Positions 1 through 10,885 of a stretch of DNA of 10,885 bases are shown one piece after another. Made by a program: the position numbers and the translations under genes. The notes beneath the pieces are model-generated. The model ran no database searches, was not told where the DNA came from, and worked only from the letters and a program-made list of their open reading frames with translations. The stretch covers positions 1 to 10,885 of the IMG/VR virus record IMGVR_UViG_2541047699_000009; one strand, given 5' to 3'. The DNA comes from a virus (taxonomy: Duplodnaviria; Heunggongvirae; Uroviricota; Caudoviricetes). Position 1 is the first letter of the stretch, and each line of letters begins with the position of its first letter.

Positions 1-705
<705 letters not shown>

Positions 706-937
706 TATGGCACCTGTGTTGTTCTGAGGTGAGCATATCACCTCTGTTCAGGTGGCCAAATTCAGTAAACCACTTCAGAACTCGAGAGCATAAAAGTGGA
801 TGCCCGACGCGCGGCAAAATGGTAAAAAACAGCATCAGTAGTAAGAAAAATTGAGCGAGAGAAAGGAATTTTAATGCAGGGATTTATGCATGACAAAATC
901 AAAAATGCTTTGTAAGTGATTGATTTTGTTGAATGAT

Positions 938-999
938 TGGCGGAGAGAGGGGGATTTGAACCCCCGGTAGAGTTGCCCCTACTCCGGTTTTCGAGACCG
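938..999 (-). tRNA. Partial tRNA-Ser(CGA) gene, 3' 62 nt only (serU-like); probable prophage attR core
   Basis: Minus-strand reading CGGTCTCGAAAACCGGAGTAGGGGCAACTCTACCGGGGGTTCAAATCCCCCTCTCTCCGCCA contains an anticodon loop CUCGAAA (anticodon CGA), a long class-II variable arm, a T arm GGGGG-TTCAAAT-CCCCC, the 3' acceptor strand and CCA. The D arm and 5' acceptor strand are absent; sequence diverges at 1000. Confidence 0.8.
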
Positions 1000-1299
1000 A
1001 TGATACAGAGTCGAAAAATCAAAGAGTTAAAAACTTTTCTTGGAATAAATGTCTTAAAATCGTACACGAAAAATCAATAAATTACATAACATTAAAGAAG
1101 AATATTCCAAGCCTTCTTGAGGCCACCACCTGTTTTCAGGTGTCATTCAGACGTGATTTACCCCAGATTGGGTAAGCACGCTTTTTTTCTCAGCTTATTC
1201 CGTTTTGCCTGTGTGTTGAATAATTCCACTGCAGTTATATAAAATCGGTAACGGCTGGAAATCATTCAATACTAGCACTATCGAAAGTTAACCAGCCAA

Positions 1300-1340
1300 C
1301 CGCAGTATCCTGTCATGACAAGTTACTGCGGCTTTTTACT
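1300..1340 (+). terminator. Long imperfect palindrome followed by T-run; candidate plus-strand intrinsic terminator or protein-binding site in the att arm
   Basis: CCGCAGTATCCTGTCA / TGACAAGTTACTGCGG forms a roughly 16-bp stem with two mismatches, followed on the plus strand by CTTTTTACTTTTT. On the minus strand it is not followed by a U-run. Confidence 0.45.
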
Positions 1341-1348
1341 TTTTATAT

Positions 1349-1636
1349 TTAACGGATCAACATCCAGATCAGCAGACACGCCACCACCGGCACAGCAAAA
1401 TCCATCAGGCTTGCCACATCCCACGCGCGTGGATCAAAACCGCCCCACCACGGCATGTTAATCCGCTTGCCATGCCCGAACATTTCAATCCAGCGATATT
1501 CTGCCTGGGTGTGTTCACGCGCAATGAAGAACGTACAACCGGCTATCGCCCCGTAAGCCCAGTTTCCGGTAAAAAGACCAGCCAGTACCTGTACCGCTAC
1601 GGCACAAATTGCATGAAGTATCGGCGTGATATCCAT
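1349..1636 (-). CDS. Hypothetical small integral membrane protein (95 aa), terminal moron position of the prophage
   Basis: ATG at 1634-1636, 9 nt after the upstream ORF stop, with AAGGGGAG just upstream. The translation has three hydrophobic segments (ILHAICAVAVQVLAGLF, AYGAIAGCTFFI, FAVPVVACLLIWMLI). I do not recognise the family. Confidence 0.55.
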   Translation of the reverse strand: MDITPILHAICAVAVQVLAGLFTGNWAYGAIAGCTFFIAREHTQAEYRWIEMFGHGKRINMPWWGGFDPRAWDVASLMDFAVPVVACLLIWMLIR

Positions 1637-1645
1637 CTGCTCCCC

Positions 1646-1924
1646 TTAAAACCACTCCCTGAGCGGGCGCTCTGGTGTAACCACCCACTCACGGAACACG
1701 GATTCATCAAAGCCATCGTCAAGAAGACGAATATTAACAAAGTACCCTTCGTCTCGCGTGTATTCAGGCTCCCCGTCAGCAGAAACACCTGACTCACTGA
1801 ACGTAAAACCAATCTCATCAACCAGAACGGCATTCTGCAGCTCTTCGTCCTCTTCCCAGTTAAGTTTCCTGAGAAATGCCCTGAAATCTGCTTTATCACT
1901 GAAACGCAACGTGAAATCTCTCAC
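1646..1924 (-). CDS. Hypothetical small acidic protein (92 aa), translationally coupled to stf; possible tail-fibre assembly or chaperone-like protein
   Basis: GTG start at 1922-1924 overlaps the stf TGA stop in a GTGA arrangement, with GGGGAGG about 7 nt upstream. There is no internal Met. It is much shorter than lambda Tfa and I see no similarity to it. Confidence 0.55.
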   Translation of the reverse strand: MRDFTLRFSDKADFRAFLRKLNWEEDEELQNAVLVDEIGFTFSESGVSADGEPEYTRDEGYFVNIRLLDDGFDESVFREWVVTPERPLREWF

Positions 1925-3984
1925 TCCACAACCTCCCCAAGCTGCGCATCTGTTAGCTCTTTATGCCAGAGACGAAAATTCCTCACATGCCCAAATAAAT
2001 GGCGTAATCCTGCTGTAGTTTGTCCACCAATGCGAATGGTTGCTGTACTCCGGATATATTCCCATTTGGTTTTAGTTTCGCTGCTTAACTTACCGTTACT
2101 GACTAAACATGTGGACCGTTCGGACTTTACCCGCATACCAATAAGCATTTTTTTCAGCCCGGCATTTTCATTTATTCGTCGGTTTGAACCACCTATATCA
2201 CAATACGGAAAACCGTCGTACCCACCTGATGAACCAAACCCCATTACGATCCCCGCATCTGCCTGATGCCGGTATGTGTCAAAAACACGCGGTGCTGCAT
2301 TTGGCGTTTTATACCAGTTCTTATGTACCTCACAAAGAACCGTAAAAGGAAGATTATAAAGATTATTCTTAATCGGAACTGTAACCATATCGCTTGCCCG
2401 CGTTACCGGTGCCGTCCCCGTAACAATAAAAGATGATGCGCCTGTACCAGCCTCAATCTGTGGAGTGGTTACATCGAGATAATCCCCTGATGCAACCATC
2501 TGCCCTGTATCCGGAGAATACTGGACAAAACCACCAACCGTATTTTCTGTTGTATCTGCTTTTAATGTAGCCTCAAAAAATATCCAGCCAGTTGCATCAT
2601 CCTTAACAGACCTTGCTGTAACACGGCTTGTCTGACCTGTCTTGCTAATTATGCGGGTGGTAAGGTTCAGGTTTGCTGCTCCTATTGATGTCCTTACCTC
2701 CCCATCATAATGTTCAAATAAAATACGAACGGCGATATTATCAACTTCACTTTTTACCCGACAGGATATAGTTACATGCTTTTCGTCCCCTGAAGTATCA
2801 ACCCCTCCGGTACTCGAATACAGTCCGATAATGGTATGCGCTTTACTTGTACCAACAATCGAATCCTGTACGACAAACCGGCCATAATTAAACCCGAAAC
2901 TATCTGTGCCTGTTTCTGTAACGTCCAGTGAAGTTGACTTATTCCACTTCGAAGGGTCTGTACTGTTCGGGAAGAAGTTCGTTCTTTGCCCCTCAATAAG
3001 CAGGCCATCACACTCAAATCGTGGCTCATTAATTTCCGCCGTTTTCAGTTCGCCAGATTTGTTGATATATGTTGCCGTTGATGCGCGACTGAAATTAACC
3101 TGTTTATCACTGGCAACCTGAACCACATTATCACCAATCTTCACTTTTTTATAACCCGGAGAATAGCCCGTAATCATATCCAGCGAATCATTAAAGGGTA
3201 TCCACACATCCGGCAGCGGCTGTAAAACATATCTGTACGGCTCTGCTGTCTGGTTTGCGTATTCTCTGGCAGCATCTTCACTTGCTTTTGCTGCCGTCTG
3301 GCTTGCTGCCGATGCTTTCGCCGAGTTCGCCGCCGCTGTTTCGCTCACCTTTGCGTTGGCTTCACTGTCTTTGGCATTCGTCTCACTGGTTTTCGCTGCC
3401 GTCTGGCTGGATTTTGCGTTTTTTTCGCTGGCCTTTGTGGCTGTCTCGCTATTTTTCGCGTTGGTTTCTGATTTTTTGGCTGCTGTCGCGGAGTTTGCCG
3501 ATGCAGTCTGCGAGGCCGCTGCCGCCTGTGCGCTGTTAGCTGCATTCGTTTCTGAGGTTTTCGCCGCGTTCTTCGATGAGGCCGCTGCCGTTTCGGATTT
3601 CTTTGCCGCCGCTGCACTCTGTGATGACGCTCCGGCATGACGTGCCACTTCATTCACCATCAGCTCAAAACGGCGCAGTGCCTCCGGACGGGCATCATCC
3701 TCCGTCATGGCACCGAGAAAATCATTCAGCGTACCTGGTCTGGAACCTTCATAGACGGTAATGGTCCCGGCATGTGAAGGTGGAAAACCTTCAACCAGCA
3801 GGGTGACGCTGTACTGGCCATACTCAACATCCATGCTGTAACGCCCGGCTTCATCCGGATTTTCAGAGGCCACCGTGTTCACCACCACCGTGCTGCTGGT
3901 CCGTCTGGCCTTCAGCACAATGGTGCAGTTCTGTACTGGTTTTCCTGTGCCATCTTTAAGCACGCCAGAAATTTTTACTGTCAT
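1921..3984 (-). CDS. stf: Side tail fibre protein (Stf-like), 687 aa, mosaic with divergent C-terminal half
   Basis: N-terminus MTVKISGVLKDGTGKPVQNCTIVLKARR...RYSMDVEYGQYSV...FPPSHAGTITVYE matches the lambda Stf N-terminal domain from memory, followed by an Ala/Ser/Lys/Thr-rich repeat. The C-terminal half is of lower GC and ends ...GHVRNFRLWHKELTDAQLGEVVE. Confidence 0.85.
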   Translation of the reverse strand: MTVKISGVLKDGTGKPVQNCTIVLKARRTSSTVVVNTVASENPDEAGRYSMDVEYGQYSVTLLVEGFPPSHAGTITVYEGSRPGTLNDFLGAMTEDDARPEALRRFELMVNEVARHAGASSQSAAAAKKSETAAASSKNAAKTSETNAANSAQAAAASQTASANSATAAKKSETNAKNSETATKASEKNAKSSQTAAKTSETNAKDSEANAKVSETAAANSAKASAASQTAAKASEDAAREYANQTAEPYRYVLQPLPDVWIPFNDSLDMITGYSPGYKKVKIGDNVVQVASDKQVNFSRASTATYINKSGELKTAEINEPRFECDGLLIEGQRTNFFPNSTDPSKWNKSTSLDVTETGTDSFGFNYGRFVVQDSIVGTSKAHTIIGLYSSTGGVDTSGDEKHVTISCRVKSEVDNIAVRILFEHYDGEVRTSIGAANLNLTTRIISKTGQTSRVTARSVKDDATGWIFFEATLKADTTENTVGGFVQYSPDTGQMVASGDYLDVTTPQIEAGTGASSFIVTGTAPVTRASDMVTVPIKNNLYNLPFTVLCEVHKNWYKTPNAAPRVFDTYRHQADAGIVMGFGSSGGYDGFPYCDIGGSNRRINENAGLKKMLIGMRVKSERSTCLVSNGKLSSETKTKWEYIRSTATIRIGGQTTAGLRHLFGHVRNFRLWHKELTDAQLGEVVE
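3265..3635. repeat. Imperfect tandem 21-nt (7-codon) repeats encoding the K-x-S-E-T/N-x-A low-complexity segment of Stf
   Basis: Protein segment KKSETAAASSKNAAKTSETNAANSA...KKSETNAKNSETATKASEKNAKSSQTAAKTSETNAKDSEANAKVSETAAANSAKAS. The DNA shows recurring units such as TTTCGCTGCCGTCTGGCT, and the repeat generates spurious ORFs on other frames (3345..3653, 3356..3640). Confidence 0.7.
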
Positions 3985-3995
3985 ACTTTTCCACC

Positions 3996-4029
3996 AATAA
4001 AAAAAGCCCGCAGCAGTGACGCCACGGGC
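3996..4029 (-). terminator. Candidate rho-independent terminator downstream of lom, about 20 nt upstream of the stf start
   Basis: Minus-strand RNA GCCCGUGGCGUCACUGCUGCGGGC can form a roughly 10-bp stem including G-U wobbles, followed by UUUUUUUAUU. The plus-strand equivalent would have A-C mismatches, so the structure is strand-specific. Confidence 0.5.
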
Positions 4030-4135
4030 TTCAGGACAGTGTAACTTTACGTTTCCTCAAACGCAGTTCACCCCATAAGGCGGATGAACCTGCGTATCAT
4101 AACAATATTTACAGAAGATAAATCGGCGTCTGTTG

Positions 4136-4735
4136 TCAGAAACGGTATCCGATACCAACAATAAATGCATCCGTTCGCCAGTCGCCACTGCCGGAGCCTT
4201 CATAAGCAATATCAATGGCCACGGATTCGGTCGGGTTAAACTGCACGCCAGCTCCCCACGCCAGAGAGGTATTGCTGTGGCGACCGTCATCACTTCCGGT
4301 CAGCACGTCGTGCGTTTTCCCCTTGTTGTCAGTTACGCGGAGATAATCCCCGGAGAAAGTCGACACACGGCTGTAAGCCACACCCGCGATCGCATACGCG
4401 CTGAACCATTCATTCACGCGCACAGACGGCCCCGCCATCACGCTGAACCAGCGGTTACGCACGGAATCTTCATGCCAGCGGGTATCGCTGTAATGCGTTT
4501 TTTGCTCATCTTTGGCATTGGCATAACTGAATGACGTCACCAGCCCCAGCGTGTCCGTAAATTCATAACGGTATTTCACGTTAATGCCCTTCAGGTCATC
4601 GCTGCCTGGCATATCAGTATGGGTCTGAAGATACCCGGCGCTTAGTGTGGACTGATGCTCTGCTGCGCTCGCTGGCGTACCAGCGGCAACCAGCCAGACT
4701 ACTGCGGACAGAATAACAGCACATAATTTACGCAT
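4136..4735 (-). CDS. lom: Lom-like outer-membrane beta-barrel protein (Ail/OmpX/PagC family), 199 aa
   Basis: Signal peptide MRKLCAVILSAVVWLVAAGTPASA, alternating beta-strand pattern and C-terminal GIGYRF aromatic terminus. Position between J and stf is the same as lambda lom. AGAGG lies upstream of the ATG. Confidence 0.9.
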   Translation of the reverse strand: MRKLCAVILSAVVWLVAAGTPASAAEHQSTLSAGYLQTHTDMPGSDDLKGINVKYRYEFTDTLGLVTSFSYANAKDEQKTHYSDTRWHEDSVRNRWFSVMAGPSVRVNEWFSAYAIAGVAYSRVSTFSGDYLRVTDNKGKTHDVLTGSDDGRHSNTSLAWGAGVQFNPTESVAIDIAYEGSGSGDWRTDAFIVGIGYRF

Positions 4736-4755
4736 AATTACCTCTCGCTTTTCTG

Positions 4756-4783
4756 CAATAAAAAAGGCGCCATTTCTGGCGCC
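4756..4783 (-). terminator. Rho-independent terminator between J and lom
   Basis: Minus-strand GGCGCCAGAAAUGGCGCC is a perfect 6-bp GC stem with a 6-nt loop, followed by UUUUUUAUU. It is not a terminator on the plus strand. Confidence 0.7.
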
Positions 4784-4802
4784 CGTATTGGGGTTATAAA
4801 AT

Positions 4803-7800
4803 TCAGCTAATCGTGATGCCTGCAGTGGCTTTCTTCATCACAACAACCAGCAAATCGCTGATACTTGCTGTGGGATACCAGCCATTTACCCACCATGCTG
4901 ATACAGAAAACTCCAGCGTCATGTCGCCGCGACCAGCAGGCATATCAATAACACCACTGTAAACCAGCGTATTATCCATCGCGGTACGGTTATAAATTTC
5001 AGCACCGTTTTTCTTCACTATCAGGCGGCATGACGAATAAGTATCGCTGTTCTCCCGCTCATGTCTGGCACCGCTGAAAGCCACCGCCGGAATAACAATC
5101 TGCCGGTTAAACGGCTGATCGTCATAAACCCTGACGGTAATGGTTCCTGATGGCCAACGCTTCGGTGCACGGGAGTCACGAGGGAAAGCCTTACCCACTG
5201 TTTTAACGAGATCGCCTTCAATCTGGTTTGCAGACAGTTTCCCTCTGATGACACAGTTCTCGTTAATGGTGACATTATTGAGCGTGCCGGTATTCGCCGT
5301 GATGGCTCCACTGATATCCGCATTGCGGGCTGTCAGCCTGCCATCCGGCGTCAGGGAAAACGTCGGAGGATTGCCGGATGACGTGATGCTCACCGCAAAC
5401 AGTCGCTTCAGGAACACGTCGTTCATGAACAGCTGATTCCCCTGCGCCACAAACAGCGGCGTGGTGTTGCCGTTCTCCGGGGTAATCATCGCAATGCGAT
5501 CGGCCTGCAGCAGAATGTTACTCAGGGTCTGACCATCAACATCCTCAATCCCCGCACCAATCCCGGCCACATAGGGAATACCGTTTTTTGTTTTCTGCAC
5601 CTTCAGCATATACATGGCATTCAGCTCATTGCGCGTGTCTGACTGAACCCGCTGGATTTGCTGTATGGTCACGGCCTGGTCACCCAGCTTTTTATCCGTG
5701 GTCGAGGTAATTTCACTCCCTTTTTTATCCACGTACTGGCGGACCTGTGCTATCTGTCGGGCGTTTTCTGACTGCCCCTGGCTGACAGTCTGTGAGATTT
5801 CACTGCTCACCCGGTCCACTTTCTGGCTCACCTGCGCGATGGCCAGTGTCTGGTCCTCATTCTTTTTCGCAACCAGCTGCGTGAGGCTGTTTTCCGCCTT
5901 CCCGATTTTCCGGGTCACTTCTGCGATATCCGTGTCCATCCGCTGACGGATGTCTTCTTCCAGTTGCGTGACCTCCGTACGCAGCGCTGAAGCATCAATG
6001 CGCTCTTTCAGTGCCTGGCCCAGAAGCGTCTCATCTATCAGCCCCCGGAAAATTTCCAGATACCCTTCACCATCATTGCTGGGCTGCCCGCTGGCTTCCA
6101 CAAAAGCAGATTTTCCCACCAGGTTGACGCTTCGCACGTAAAACCAGAAATCCGTCCCCGGCTTAATCCGGCTCCCCTGGACAGTCCACTGACTGCCGGT
6201 CCCCAGATAACGGGCAGATTTTTCCACCTGTGCTGTGTTCGTGATGCGTTTTTCTGAGAACCAGAATTCAAACTGCACCGTCGGGTCATACACCGCAAGA
6301 CGCGGGACCGCCGTTATCTGAAAATACCCCGGCGTCAGCTCAATGGTGGCGGGTTTTGCAGGTGCGTTAATCCTGAACGTGGTGGTGGCCGGTTCGCCCT
6401 GCTGGCCATAACTGTTAATCGCCCTGACCGTCAGGGTGTATTCCCCCAGTGGCAGGCCGCTGAAACGGTGCTCCGTGTCTGCGGTGCTGGCGGTGCTCAC
6501 CAGACGGCTGTCTTCTCCGCTTCCGCTGGTCAGACGCAGACTGAAGCGCACACCCTTCACCACCCGCGGCGTGTCCCATTTCGCCTGTGCCAGATACTGA
6601 CCGTCAGCTGCACTCACCTCCACCGTCAGGTGCTGCACTGCCGGTGGGATAACGCTGTTCAGGGTGCCTGACTGCGGCTCAAAGCGGGCCCCGTTATCCA
6701 CGATGGCTTCTTTTTCAGGTACGTGCTGCACCGCCGTGATGGCAAAGGTGCCGTCCGTGTTTTCCCGGATGGAGACACAGCGGAACAGGCGACGACGCAG
6801 TGACGGCAGGGAGAGTCCCCACACACCGTATGTCTCCACACCATCCGGCAGGGTGCTGACCTGTATCCGGTCAGGCGCGGGGTGTGCGGTGATGGCCACG
6901 CTCGCCGGCTTACCGCTGCCGTTAATCAGATTAACAGTGGCCGTGCCGGTCTCCGGCAGTGTCACCTCCCGGTCCAGCGTCAGGGTACGGCTGGCGGCAT
7001 CGATGGACAGGACACGTCCGCCGGTCATGGTCCCGGCATAGTCGTTATCACAGATTTCAATGATGTCACCGGGTGTGTGACGCAGCCCCTGTGACCCGAG
7101 CGTGAAATCCACCGTCTGCGTTTCCAGCAGTTCGGTCTTTATCACCCACAGCCCGGCACGGTGGGCCTGACCGCGGCTGGTACAGCCGAACGCGTCCATC
7201 TTCAGCAGGTTGCGTCCGTAGCGCAGTATGGCTTCCGGGTCTTCCACCAGTTCCGTGGAGGTCTGCCAGCCGTTCTGCGGGTCGGTGTAATTCACCTCCA
7301 CCGCCGTGTGCCGGTCCTTCAGGGCACTGAAGCTGTAGCGGAAACCCACGCCGTTATCATCCACCACCACATCGCTGCTGGTGTACGGCCACACCACATC
7401 CGACGGGCGGTCCTGAACGAACGTCAGCGTCTGACCGTTCCATACCGGCATACAGCGCATCGCAGAGCAGAAATCACTGAGAACGTCCCACGCCTTACGC
7501 TGTTGTGCCAGGTACGCATTAAAGGTCATCCGCGGCTCGGTCCCCCCGAAACCATCCGGGACCGTCTGGTCGCAGTACTGCCCGATGGCATACAGCGCCC
7601 ACTTGTCCACATCCGCCGCCCCCAGACGTTTTCCCATGCCGTAGCGCGGGTGAGTCAGCATGTCCCACAGACACCAGGCCGGGTTGTTGCTGTATGCCGG
7701 TTTCAGGCTGCCGTCCCAGATACCACTGTACGTGCGTTTTTCCGGGTCATAGTTTGACGGCACCTGGATGATGCGACCGCGGATATGGTAGTTCACCGTC

Positions 7801-8495
7801 ATCTGCTGGCCGCCGAACTGCTCCGCATCCACCTGCAGCCCCACAATGGCCGTGTTCGGGTAGCACTGTTTCACATCGATGATTTCGGTGTATGACGACC
7901 ACAGCGTCTTATTCTGCAGCTGGTCCGTGGTGCTGTCCGCCGTCTCCCTGACCATCCGGATGTTAAAGGGCCGGGGAGGCAGATTATCCAGAATCACCGA
8001 GGCCAGGAACTGCGAGGTGGTCTTGCCGTTAATGGTGACATCCTTTTCCGTCACCCAGCGGCCATTACGCTGTAACTGAATCAGAATCCGGACAGAGGAA
8101 GGATTACGGTCGCCCTTTGACGTGGTCTGCACCAGTGACTGCACCCCGAAGGTAACCCGCAGGCGGTCAATGTTCGCGGACGTAATGGTGCGCGTCACCG
8201 GTTTTGCCTTCGTCACTTCCACGCCCAGTCCGGTTTCAGCTCCGGAGGACTCAAAGCCTTCCGGTGGTGTCTGCTCCTGCTCCCCGGCACGCCAGACCGC
8301 AGTCACACCGTGTATCACGGGATTACCGTCCGTGTCCGTCAGCGGGGTTTTGTTCACCAGAATACTCTGCAGTCCCTTCACCGGACCTTCTATCGGTCCC
8401 TCACCAATCGCATCAATCACACTCATCATCTGCGTGGATTTGAGATTATCCTTCGCCTCACGAGGCGTGTGTGCCTTACCGCCACCTTTTCCCAT
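4803..8495 (-). CDS. J: Tail tip / host-specificity protein J (central tail fibre), 1230 aa
   Basis: N-terminus [22 protein letters not shown] and long internal stretches ([90 protein letters not shown]) match lambda gpJ from memory. It is about 100 aa longer than lambda J and the C-terminal roughly 130 aa are divergent. Confidence 0.95.
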
Positions 8496-8597
8496 ACAGC
8501 CTTCCCCTGAATAAATTAACCGCCACTTGCCATTCCGTACAGAAGTCGGATATCCTTCGCCCGAAAAGCATGAAACACATTTCTGCCATGCTAAAGA

Positions 8598-8633
8598 GAA
8601 ACCCCGGTATCAGCAGATACCGGGGTTTTCTTT
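8598..8633. terminator. Bidirectional hairpin terminator in the I-J intergenic insertion
   Basis: ACCCCGGTATC-AGCA-GATACCGGGGT is an 11-bp perfect stem with a 4-nt loop. It is followed by TTTTCTTT on the plus strand and UUCUCUUU on the minus strand. Confidence 0.6.
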
Positions 8634-8700
8634 CATGCCCACCGATAATCCTGTTGGTTAAAACCGGTAATGGCATAAAAATTCTGAATATCTTCACATT

Positions 8701-8728
8701 TTCACAAACTGACTGTGGCGCGTATAAT
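8701..8728 (+). promoter_or_regulatory. Sigma70-like promoter candidate (TTCACA, 16-nt spacer, TATAAT) on the plus strand
   Basis: Consensus -10 TATAAT at 8723-8728 and TTCACA at 8701-8706 with a 16-nt spacer. No ORF follows; a terminator lies about 70-100 nt downstream. Confidence 0.45.
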
Positions 8729-8734
8729 TTCTCT

Positions 8735-8831
8735 GCGTTAATTTTTTTGTCGTGATATAAGAATAATTCCTTACACTTAATCTTCGTAACTCTCCCGCAG
8801 TTCCTGTCCGCGATCACTGCGGGATTTTTTT
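8735..8831 (+). ncRNA. Candidate small non-coding RNA, about 95 nt, between the promoter candidate and the plus-strand terminator
   Basis: Defined only by a promoter-like element upstream and an intrinsic terminator downstream, with no coding potential in between (GTG followed by a stop after two codons). I do not recognise it as a known sRNA. Confidence 0.3.
8795..8831 (+). terminator. Plus-strand rho-independent terminator abutting the I stop codon
   Basis: CCCGCAGT ... ACTGCGGG is an 8-bp stem with a roughly 13-nt loop, followed by ATTTTTTTATTCTTTTT. On the minus strand the hairpin is followed by AGAGUUACG, so it is plus-strand specific. Confidence 0.6.
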
Positions 8832-8838
8832 ATTCTTT

Positions 8839-9519
8839 TTACCCCTGCCGCCCGATAACCACGACCTTTCCGCCCCCGCCTTCATCACGGGTGCTGATGT
8901 CCTGGGATATACGGCGGGAGCCAACCAGCATTTCCCCGTAAGGCACCGGCATCGGGTTCCCCTGGGCAATCATGTTATCCAGTGAGGAAAAGTACGTGTT
9001 CTGTCTGCCGTTATCCGTTGCGCGGTAATCCGGTGTTTTTGCCTTCGGGGCCAGCATCTGGGCCACACCGCCCAGTATCATGCTGGCCCCCAGTGAAAAC
9101 AGCATCGTGGTGGCAGAAAAACCGCCGGCACTCAGGGCTGTACCCCATAACGCCATCGAGGCACCGGCCGTGAAGAAAGAGCCCACGATGGCTGCCGCCC
9201 CCAGCACAATCTGCAGTCCACCCTTTCCGGCCCCGGCCAGTCGCGGCACAATGTGGATGACCGTTCCCTCACCCAGCTGTTCGTGAAGACGGGCGTACAC
9301 CGCCTCCGGTGCCGTGTCATCACCGGCAATACGTATCTGGTACCAGCCTTCGTTCATCTGACGGCGAAAGCCCGGCATCTGCATCGACAGGGCGCGAATG
9401 GCTTCCGCTGCCGTGTTCACATACAGGCTGAGGCGGCGGCCAAATCGTTGTAAATCCCCGTAAAGGCGGATGCGTGCCAGTGGCGGTGACGCCAGACTGA
9501 ATGCGTTCGTCGTTGCCAT
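8839..9519 (-). CDS. I: Tail tip assembly protein I, 226 aa
   Basis: MATTNAFSLASPPLARIRLYGDLQRFGRR..., AVIHIVPR-type motif, Gly/Ala-rich hydrophobic segment and C-terminal TDNGRQNTYFSSLDNMIAQGNPMPVPYGEM match lambda gpI from memory. ATG confirmed at 9517-9519. Confidence 0.9.
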   Translation of the reverse strand: MATTNAFSLASPPLARIRLYGDLQRFGRRLSLYVNTAAEAIRALSMQMPGFRRQMNEGWYQIRIAGDDTAPEAVYARLHEQLGEGTVIHIVPRLAGAGKGGLQIVLGAAAIVGSFFTAGASMALWGTALSAGGFSATTMLFSLGASMILGGVAQMLAPKAKTPDYRATDNGRQNTYFSSLDNMIAQGNPMPVPYGEMLVGSRRISQDISTRDEGGGGKVVVIGRQG

Positions 9520-10160
9520 TTTTCGGAATACCTCTCCCGTTTACTCAGTTGTTCAGGAATATGGTGCAGCAGCTCGCCGTCACCACAGTAAACGGCGGCA
9601 TGATTCGGCACCGATGAACCAAAGCAGCACAGCAGCACATCGCCTGCCTGTGCAGAGGACGGAGACACCCGGCAAAAGCCGTTTTCCGCCAGGTTGTCCA
9701 GGTACAGGTTCTGGCCGTTGCGCCACCAGTCATCCTCGCGATGAAAATCCGGCATTTCAGTCCCCGCCAGATGATAAGCATCCCGGAACAGCGTGTAACA
9801 GTCCGTCACCCCGTGCTCAAAGCGCCGTCCCGTCAGATGTGGCACACAGCGGAATTTGTGAATGTCACCCCGGCAGACCAGCCACCAGGGCAGTGCGCTT
9901 TTTATCTGCAGCCGCCGGTCAGCCTCGCTCAGCCAGGGCAGCCCACCGGGATGACTGTGGACCAGTGCCACAATCTCCCCCTGCATCTCTGCCCGCAGCC
10001 AGTCTTCCGGTGCGATACGAAAATACGCCTCCGGCTCCGCGGAAATATTCACACAAGGGATATACCGCTCCCCCTCCGGCGTGCTTATCACGAAGCCGCA
10101 CGACTCCGCAGGCGCACACCGCCGGGCATGCGCCAGAATCGCTGATTCAGTCTGTGTCAT
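9417..10160 (-). CDS. K: Tail tip assembly protein K (JAB/MPN metalloprotease-like plus NlpC/P60-like domains), 247 aa from the MTQTES start
   Basis: Begins MTQTESAILAHARRCAPAESCGF and contains the JAMM motif HSHPGGLPWLSEAD (H-x-H-x7-S-x2-D). ATG at 10158-10160 is 10 nt after the L stop. The 3' end overlaps the start of I by 103 nt. The track ORF to 10421 is an upstream extension into L and was not used. Confidence 0.88.
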   Translation of the reverse strand: MTQTESAILAHARRCAPAESCGFVISTPEGERYIPCVNISAEPEAYFRIAPEDWLRAEMQGEIVALVHSHPGGLPWLSEADRRLQIKSALPWWLVCRGDIHKFRCVPHLTGRRFEHGVTDCYTLFRDAYHLAGTEMPDFHREDDWWRNGQNLYLDNLAENGFCRVSPSSAQAGDVLLCCFGSSVPNHAAVYCGDGELLHHIPEQLSKRERYSEKWQRRTHSVWRHRHWHASAFTGIYNDLAAASACM

Positions 10161-10170
10161 AAACCGGGAT

Positions 10171-10869
10171 TTACTGCGAAAGTTTATTAATGGAAAGGAA
10201 ACCGCCAAAATTGCCGACATTCCTGCGCAGTTCACACCCGCGCATGCACTTGCTGCATCTGTCCTTACGGATATCCGTGGTGGGTTTATCGAACTCATCC
10301 GCCACAGCCCCGCCCGTGTAACCACACTCATCAGAGCGGTAGGTCCACATACAGGTGTTCGCCAGCATGATACGACCGGGAAACAGCGCCCCGTCCGTCT
10401 CGGTCGGTGTGGCCAGCACAAACGAGGCCGTCATGGCTGTCAGCTGCGACATCTGCTCCACCACCCAGCGGTCACTCAGCTCCTGCTCCGGGTCCGCCTC
10501 CGGATTGCCCGCAACGAAATTCACCGCATCCAGAAAACGGGCATACACCCGGCGGCGGACCACCGTGGCCCCCACCAGACTCTGCAGGTCTTCCGCCATC
10601 CCGGTGACCAGACCAAACAGATTGGACACCGTCAGCGATGGTCTGGCACTGCTGCCCTTCCCGTTCATCTCAAAGCCACTCCCCTCAATCGGGTACGCCT
10701 GATATTCACGCCCCTGCCAGGTGACCGGCTCCCCTTTTTCATTCAGCTCATTGCAGAAAAAATACCGCTCACCGCCCTGCACCGTCAGGTCGATTTCCCA
10801 GAGTACCACCCGCGGTGACTGCTCTGACTTAACCGACTCGTTCAGACTTTCTTCGTGAATATCCTGCAT
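10171..10869 (-). CDS. L: Minor tail protein L, 232 aa
   Basis: MQDIHEESLNE...RVVLWEIDLT...GERYFFCNE...GEPVTWQGREYQ...FGGFLSINKLSQ matches lambda gpL from memory. The C-terminal cysteine cluster (CMWTYRSDECGYTG ... CSKCMRGC) fits the Fe-S-binding region of gpL. Confidence 0.93.
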   Translation of the reverse strand: MQDIHEESLNESVKSEQSPRVVLWEIDLTVQGGERYFFCNELNEKGEPVTWQGREYQAYPIEGSGFEMNGKGSSARPSLTVSNLFGLVTGMAEDLQSLVGATVVRRRVYARFLDAVNFVAGNPEADPEQELSDRWVVEQMSQLTAMTASFVLATPTETDGALFPGRIMLANTCMWTYRSDECGYTGGAVADEFDKPTTDIRKDRCSKCMRGCELRRNVGNFGGFLSINKLSQ

Positions 10870-10885
10870 CAGTTCACCACCTGCT
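10869..10885 (-). CDS. M: 3' end of the upstream tail gene (minor tail protein M by synteny), partial at the window edge
   Basis: A minus-strand frame ends with TGA at 10869-10871, overlapping the L ATG (ATGA). Only about 5 codons are in the window, so identity rests on lambda gene order alone. Confidence 0.4.

Follow-up and report, generated by a model that had tools for sequence, protein, structure and literature searches.

The stretch of DNA analysed here, called the window in the following, comprises 10,885 nucleotides of a tailed virus (Caudoviricetes; IMG/VR record IMGVR_UViG_2541047699_000009, positions 1 to 10,885). It includes a lambda-like tail end and the junction between prophage and chromosome. 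Between the two lies a small open reading frame (ORF) on the minus strand (1349-1636), and its 95-residue product is referred to as X. A first-pass annotation, made from the letters alone, had described X as a three-helix membrane protein moron and a candidate superinfection-exclusion or lysogenic-conversion factor. The features of the locus are the following:

1-760 (orfA 403-741, minus strand): truncated IS3-family insertion sequence, ISEc52-like, abutting the tRNA-Ser 3' fragment.
938..998, minus strand: 3' fragment of a tRNA-Ser-like gene (T-arm, acceptor end and part of the anticodon arm), att core and prophage/chromosome junction; cmscan T-arm match at 941-992.
1298..1333, no strand assigned: strong stem-loop directly past the X stop codon; an 83-nt stretch folds at -27.7 kcal/mol (z = -4.7).
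1349..1636, minus strand: X, three-helix membrane protein, ATG-started ORF of 95 amino acids (aa), PHROG 1443.
1640..1645, minus strand: Shine-Dalgarno sequence GGGGAG of X, 3 nt ahead of its ATG, read directly from the sequence.
1646..1924, minus strand: 92-aa ORF, PHROG 1361; its ATG overlaps the stf stop.
1921..3984, minus strand: side tail fibre (stf) with a phage_tail_N N-terminus (PF08400, E = 4e-68) and a C-terminal receptor-binding domain of the PHROG 1419/5939 type.
4003..4032, minus strand: intrinsic terminator between lom and stf (13-bp stem with 7 GC pairs, plus a T-run).
4136-4735, minus strand: Lom (Ail_Lom, E = 6e-128).
4803-8495, minus strand: gpJ of the lambda-like tail end.

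X is a real, slowly evolving and constrained gene, far beyond a chance ORF. The reading frame is intact, has a ribosome-binding site and encodes a protein identical to WP_021517464.1 (exact match in a protein collection). None of 81 E. coli copies is disrupted, and the ratio of nonsynonymous to synonymous substitution rates (dN/dS) is 0.18 across 43 distinct E. coli alleles. Between genera, the E. coli protein and the copies from Aeromonas, Leclercia and Comamonas agree at 56-63% of residues. The fibre adjoining X reaches only 25-37% identity, in partial alignments, between E. coli and these genera, and the 92-aa gene was detected in Escherichia only.

The first-pass annotation had been unable to assign a family. 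X does belong to one: it matches the PHROG 1443 profile with E = 3.6e-57, residues 1-95 falling on profile positions 1-95 of 97. This family has no assigned function, and PHROG 34165 is its C-terminal fragment family. An hmmscan of X against PHROGs (E <= 0.1) returned just three families, each of unknown function; there was no Pfam match at E <= 0.1 and none in NCBIfam. Clustering of the relatives of X gave 565 groups at 90% identity and 334 at 50%, and all of these relatives are stand-alone proteins of about 90-146 aa; no gene fusions were found among them. Among 36 remote members, no Pfam family was common at E <= 5, where only scattered hydrophobic-bias matches appeared. A match to the PhoR N-terminus in three of these 36 was judged to be noise. 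None of the PADLOC-DB defence models matched X at E <= 1. The PDB held no sequence relative, and fold searches gave generic helical bundles only. In agreement with the earlier description of a small membrane protein with no structural role, X shows no structural-protein signature. A literature search for the PHROG 1443 family turned up no function, structure or paper, and the family is not named in the paper by Tai (PMC11364771) or in the Mathieu 2020 moron survey (PMC6969025). The sequence of X is already known (PHROG 1443, phage 21) and has been annotated as "hypothetical" thousands of times.

The hydropathy profile of X shows residues 4-39 as one long hydrophobic block and residues 74-94 as another. 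The AlphaFold2 model, built on a 46-sequence alignment, has helices at 4-23, 26-53 and 74-94, with a mean predicted local distance difference test (pLDDT) score of 91.3. In the phage 21 homologue, however, a GenBank note gives only two transmembrane (TM) domains by TMHMM. Of the two readings, the three TM segments of the first-pass annotation are the better supported by model and hydropathy, short of proof. The predicted shape is a tight TM1-TM2 hairpin with GxxxG motifs followed by a third TM helix. In 202 family members, the loop at 40-73 contains on average 5.4 Lys and Arg residues, the TM1-TM2 turn 0.05 and the C-tail 0.55; the C-tail itself averages 3 residues. From this charge pattern the topology is predicted to be N-in/C-out, with the conserved loop in the cytoplasm and few residues in the periplasm. 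The loop, 34 residues long, nearly invariant and rich in Arg and Trp, is predicted to pack at one membrane face, on the cytoplasmic side. In the closer family set the stretch AREHTQAEYRWI..FG.GKR.NMPWWGGFD.R.W is almost fixed, and the conserved H8, Q16 and D79 lie within helices. Even in the 36 remote members (31-56% identical) R40, E41, Q44, E46, W72 and P83 are invariant, and H8 and A45 nearly so.

X had been called the last gene before the att arm, and this was confirmed. Downstream of X there is no further gene before the att junction, only the hairpin and the tRNA-Ser-like fragment, followed by the IS3-family element. In local BLAST comparisons homology to other prophage ends breaks off exactly at 938, which identifies X as the last gene before the junction. 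ARAGORN found no complete tRNA at the att end, where there is a 3' fragment of about 60 nt; we take the gene to be serU, tRNA-Ser(CGA). In strain M1/5 the same junction adjoins an island with tcpC and a TIR gene, so the prophage occupies a tRNA-Ser hotspot that is shared with a pathogenicity island. Directly beyond X, on the opposite strand, phage 21, Lambda_ev203 and many lambdoid phages of the infant gut carry the sitABCD manganese/iron transporter operon, which marks the region from X to attP as an active cargo site.

The stem-loop at 1298-1333 has its T-run (1332-1350) on the plus strand and is a convergent intrinsic terminator; for X, whose T-run would have to lie on the other strand, it is at best a bidirectional one. 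With this orientation it would terminate transcripts arriving from the att side. A 66-nt segment at 1240-1305 is 97% identical to HK97 DNA adjoining the annotated sib site of that phage, and the same segment is common to many lambdoid prophages with differing int/att modules, with a mosaic boundary at about 1240. Position and orientation of the stem-loop fit a lambda tI/sib-like element, a function suggested by analogy. In the circular phage the transcripts arriving from the att side would be int transcripts crossing attP, which fits a retroregulation element that is split from int in the prophage.

We then considered how X may be expressed. As the first-pass annotation stated, X is co-oriented with the fibre genes, being on the same strand as J, lom, stf and the 92-aa ORF. 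The gap between the stop of the 92-aa ORF and the start of X measures 9 nt, which leaves no room for a promoter. Promoter scans, which covered the sigma-70 consensus on the minus strand, gave no site upstream of X at 9/12 matches, nor at 8/12 within 764 nt. In the prophage contexts of its relatives the distance of X to the upstream gene ranges from -1 to about 60 nt, with start/stop overlaps in several lineages. As no promoter was found and a terminator lies between lom and stf, the simplest reading makes X the final cistron of the late operon, and we infer that it is co-transcribed late. Transcripts of stf, the 92-aa ORF and X must then read through the terminator at 4003-4032, as they might by Q-antiterminated late transcription. 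With this terminator, Lom looks like a self-contained unit. The GC content is about 0.52 over X, 0.42-0.47 over the C-terminal part of the fibre and 0.55-0.57 over its N-terminal repeats, without a clear break. The description of X as a moron is supported in so far as X is accessory and dispensable, since phages with related fibres do without it (see below). X as a strict moron in the definition of Hendrix, i.e. an independent transcription unit, is not supported: the scans gave no promoter of its own, and start/stop overlaps tie it to the upstream gene in several lineages.

X is widespread in E. coli. Its DNA was found in 2068 of 5426 complete E. coli genomes (about 38%), with a median of 2 and a maximum of 8 copies per carrier. 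Among 50,697 phage records, 75 contain X, 61 of them from Escherichia; the Escherichia phage matches listed all look temperate and include lambdoids such as phage 21, Uetakevirus and a Shiga toxin (Stx) phage. In all 80 IMG/VR E. coli loci examined, X lies downstream of a fibre with the same type of C-terminal domain. The 92-aa gene is present in 72 of these 80 loci, and in 34 an extra distal-fibre gene is inserted between it and X. The classic lambdoid phage 21 carries the same fibre-X module.

Beyond E. coli lambdoids, X is found on the same strand within or after the receptor-binding clusters of sipho-, myo- and podophages. E. coli Uetakevirus podophages have the order fibre, X, membrane protein, holin, endolysin. 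In Comamonas prophages a giant gpJ and a 72-aa gene precede X, and in Pantoea, Leclercia, Acidovorax and Chelativorans prophages X follows fibre genes. Two prophages with a diversity-generating retroelement (DGR) have the order variable fibre, X, Avd; these are from Comamonas nitrativorans and Pigmentiphaga humi (about 4785-8054), where the X homologue sits between a putative variable fibre gene (PHROG 2889) and avd. A short contig from a metagenome-assembled genome labelled Dehalococcoidia carries X followed by two pectate-lyase-type spikes. A metagenomic phage has X amid five paralogous fibres; in this contig (ERR11010941) the five are tandem paralogues of the same fibre C-domain, with X after the fourth. 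The virulent Cobetia phage Carin-5 has the order tailspike, X, fibre, tailspike (hhalign 98.9%); a second small gene of this phage (00153) was considered and is not a paralogue of X. In phiHAP-1, X lies between tfa and the sheath gene, a position that is presumably equivalent to the Z/fun slot on the map of P2. Two exceptions to the general pattern were seen: a Mu-like Desulfovibrio prophage has X between terminase and portal, and an Aeromonas jumbo phage has it between terminase and a fibre. In the virulent Salmonella Kuttervirus KFSST3 (Ackermannviridae) we found an unannotated 41-codon N-terminal remnant of X (5980-6105) between two tailspike-like genes, which suggests that the spike cassette was acquired together with X and that X decayed later.

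Lysis-type genes also recur beside X. The Pantoea prophage order continues from X with a 132-aa TM protein and an endolysin. PHROG 3108 proteins (about 165-183 aa, motif GLQESR) and holin-like multi-TM proteins are repeatedly found next to X in phages that are unrelated to each other, in Comamonas and in Aeromonas phage 62AhydR11PP. The PHROG 3108 proteins are possibly transglycosylase-type endolysins; neither these nor the PHROG 1544 neighbours of X gave PDB matches.

In addition, X is found, intact, as an orphan in bacterial chromosomes. Several Aeromonas species have it at a fixed site, Pirin-X-RIO1, and Leclercia has it at another fixed site. The alphaproteobacterial orphans adjoin ligA, amn, the CFA synthase gene or herA; MetE-like, ABC transporter and porin genes are further neighbours. 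No conserved partner gene was found beside the orphan copies, which fits a stand-alone function of X that benefits the host.

The relation of X to the fibre was examined by looking for the fibre without X. The PHROG 1419/5939 assignment of the window fibre was transferred from an Escherichia ruysiae homologue that is 54% identical to it, and jackhmmer ties its C-domain to fibres upstream of X in other genera. The N-terminal third of stf (3250-3700, minus strand) is a repeat region rich in Ala, Ser, Thr and Lys (…AAKKSETAAASSKNAAKTSETNAANSAQ…), with an extreme AT skew of -0.72 and long spurious ORFs in the other frames. The same fibre C-domain was found in 217 phage records, many of them from virulent phages (T1-like, Seuratvirus, T5-like, rV5-like). 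Three virulent phages were examined (Seuratvirus, T5-like, Dhillonvirus), and in each of them fibre, 92-aa gene and distal fibre follow one another without X. As these phages keep the fibre and the 92-aa gene, X is accessory and dispensable for the fibre. The slots that hold X are themselves accessory ones, namely the end of the lambda b-region beside att, the presumed equivalent of the P2 Z/fun slot in phiHAP-1 and the epsilon15 serotype-conversion slot after the tailspike. In temperate phages and in the three virulent ones alike, the start of the 92-aa gene and the stop of this fibre type share 4 nt. It evolves fast, only 24 clusters were found, and the AlphaFold2 model of its product (pLDDT 62) is too poor for a fold search. 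The 92-aa protein is probably a fibre-associated, chaperone, adaptor or assembly protein, and it is a better candidate than X for a fibre-associated function.

What X does has to be judged from these data. Slow evolution and the clustering of invariant charged and aromatic residues on one side of the membrane suggest that X has a conserved partner or substrate in the host's inner membrane. The reading we favour, to which we assign a probability of about 0.3, is that X is an inner-membrane accessory protein that acts on a conserved target in the host envelope and thus provides phage exclusion independently of the receptor. According to this proposal, temperate phages would have X at the far end of their cassette of receptor-binding genes, be it of fibre or spike type, and the interfacial module of X would bind a highly conserved component of the host inner membrane, which may be a protein, an anionic lipid or a lipid carrier. 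The resulting envelope change would then keep incoming phage genomes from establishing infection. Such exclusion would be independent of the receptor and not aimed at the phage's own kind. Both the host target and the exclusion phenotype are proposals drawn from sequence comparison and gene context. In favour of the proposal, X evolves slowly, is accessory and sits in accessory slots, has orphan copies, has decayed in the Kuttervirus and shows the charge pattern of a cytoplasmic loop.

Several observations weigh against this proposal. Known exclusion proteins evolve fast and X does not. The multiple copies per E. coli genome imply that X does not keep out other prophages that carry it. No similarity of X to any characterised exclusion or defence protein was found with PHROGs, PADLOC-DB or the Imm and gp15 profiles. 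X is intact in some virulent phages, i.e. Cobetia phage Carin-5 and Aeromonas jumbo phages, and abuts lysis genes in some lineages. The weakest point, which affects all readings with a benefit for the lysogen, is that there is no sign of X expression in the lysogen. With no promoter found, with close translational coupling to late fibre genes and with a strong terminator upstream of stf, the expression in the lysogen that prophage-mediated exclusion needs is not supported.

A wider version of the proposal, which we regard as speculative and rather doubtful, is that PHROG 1443 represents a new class of phage accessory effector. It would be an inner-membrane module of about 95 residues whose invariant loop, rich in Arg, Glu and Trp, acts on a universally conserved envelope component (an anionic lipid, a lipid carrier or a core inner-membrane machine), and it might be a minimal intramembrane enzyme or ion channel. 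Such a module would be shipped by temperate phages of all tail types and would have been domesticated by Aeromonas, Leclercia and alphaproteobacteria. A small phage membrane protein beside receptor-binding protein genes is of a familiar kind; what sets X apart is that it is extremely conserved, occurs irrespective of fibre type and tail morphology, and has domesticated copies in chromosomes. If this wider version is true, about 38% of E. coli strains have a receptor-independent route to altered cell-surface or phage-entry properties. Once the target of X is known, it would add a common receptor-independent exclusion mechanism to the prophage-encoded defences, or else a new small membrane enzyme or regulator. 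An exclusion role, if true, would matter for the prediction of host range in E. coli phage therapy. Even if X turns out to be a minor late gene, knowing this would help to annotate thousands of prophages.

Among the alternatives, the one that survives best, tentative as it is, makes X an envelope-modifying factor. It would then be a minimal membrane enzyme, or would inhibit or regulate a conserved step of surface-glycan or lipid biogenesis. Conceivable sites of action, put forward with similar reserve, are the undecaprenyl-phosphate carrier or the initiating transferase at the cytoplasmic leaflet, so that lipopolysaccharide (LPS), O-antigen, enterobacterial common antigen (ECA) or capsule would be altered whatever their exact structure. 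The polar residues H8, R40, E41, Q44, E46 and D79, clustered at one membrane face, are conserved in the manner of an enzyme, and evolution is slow over alpha-, beta- and gamma-proteobacteria. X stands beside glycan-binding fibres or tailspikes, shares a slot with epsilon15 gp21/gp22 (an O-antigen polymerase and a small two-TM polymerase inhibitor) and has orphan chromosomal copies. However, 95 aa and three helices are very small for an enzyme; partner genes are missing, GtrA, Oac, PAP2 and the other Pfam families gave no match, no promoter would serve expression in the lysogen, and targets of the Wzy type are too variable to account for the conservation of X.

It is less probable, and in our judgement unlikely, that X is a late membrane protein of the lytic cycle that takes part in lysis or its timing, whether in the manner of a holin or antiholin or as a small ion channel with an effect on the membrane potential. 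X has the size and three-helix layout of a class I holin, with GxxxG motifs and polar H, Q and D residues within helices; it is apparently co-transcribed with late genes and abuts lysis-type genes in E. coli Uetakeviruses, in Pantoea and Comamonas prophages and in Aeromonas phage 62AhydR11PP. In lambdoid phages, however, X lies about 20 kb from S/R/Rz, and their lysis cassettes are complete. X also lacks a charged C-terminal tail, its predicted N-in/C-out topology is opposite to that of class I holins, and its conservation pattern is unlike theirs. Stable chromosomal orphans and up to eight copies per genome are a poor match to a lethal membrane protein.

Still somewhat less credible is a role as cargo that benefits the host without relation to phage resistance, such as immunity to a membrane-acting bacteriocin or toxin or a stress-related small membrane regulator, which would hitch-hike in a recombination-prone accessory slot. 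This would account for the orphan copies in varied chromosomal contexts and for the repeated capture of X in accessory slots, and inner-membrane proteins with three TM segments are typical of the immunity proteins against pore-formers. Still, there is no toxin partner nearby, no supporting homology was found, and immunity proteins usually evolve fast.

Very improbable, finally, and largely refuted by the distribution of X, is a role in assembling, maturing or attaching the side tail fibre, or as a virion component: in many lineages X is tightly syntenic with fibre or fibre-chaperone genes and nearly overlaps them, and the fibre type upstream is constant in the IMG/VR E. coli loci, which speaks for it, but the sampled virulent phages have the fibre domain and the 92-aa gene without X, unrelated fibre folds are also accompanied by X, and X is an integral membrane protein with orphan chromosomal copies.

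The favoured reading, receptor-independent exclusion from the inner membrane, can be compared with known systems. The first-pass annotation had placed X in the Cor-type paradigm, in which an exclusion factor acts on the receptor or DNA injection used by the same phage. Like Cor (phi80, N15, HK022, T1) and Llp of T5, X is a small non-structural gene beside receptor-binding genes, in this case those of a temperate siphophage. However, Cor and Llp are lipoproteins of the outer membrane that are specific for a single receptor (FhuA), whereas X is predicted to be an integral inner-membrane protein. A lipobox of the form L-[ASTVI]-[GAS]-C is absent from X; C11 is preceded by H-A-I, and the majority residue of its alignment column is I at 28%. 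X is therefore not a lipoprotein of the Cor/Llp type. The tblastn search of the phage records gave no phi80, N15, HK022, T1 or T5 among the matches listed. In comparative terms, X (40-63% identical) stands behind unrelated fibres, tailspikes and a DGR-variable fibre in phages of different morphotypes. That it stays nearly invariant beside unrelated fibres, with a loop predicted to be cytoplasmic and several copies per carrier, argues against a Cor-type exclusion of the phage's own kind, and this part of the first-pass annotation was not supported.

A second group comprises T4 Imm, HK97 gp15 and P22 SieA, which are small phage inner-membrane proteins that act alone and block genome entry, the mode of action that we favour for X. 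The family profile of X gave hhalign probabilities of 0.15% with T4 Imm and 0.17% with HK97 gp15, and no SieA-type PHROG matched X at E <= 0.1. HK97 gp15 has a terminator of its own and is a true moron; X, by contrast, is coupled to the fibre genes. X is also far more conserved and widespread than Imm, gp15 and SieA.

The serotype-conversion cassette of epsilon15, which is similar to Iap of phage D3, encodes the O-antigen polymerase gp21 and gp22, a 66-aa two-TM inhibitor of the alpha-polymerase. This cassette and the X of Uetakeviruses occupy the same slot, after the tailspike and before gp23, holin and endolysin, and both suggest a small hydrophobic protein that would act on the synthesis of envelope glycans. 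The epsilon15 genes, however, form an independent unit on the opposite strand, whereas X lies on the fibre strand, and no sequence similarity was found between them. X is conserved over hosts with unrelated O-antigen polymerases.

Class I holins of the lambda S105 type, lastly, resemble X in having about 100 aa and three hydrophobic helices, in being apparently late and in the lysis-gene neighbours that some relatives of X have. X differs from them in its opposite predicted topology, its long conserved polar loop, the lack of a charged C-tail and the chromosomal orphans. A position within the lysis cassette is not seen in the window or in lambdoid relatives, but it is found in the Uetakevirus, Pantoea, Comamonas and Aeromonas relatives.

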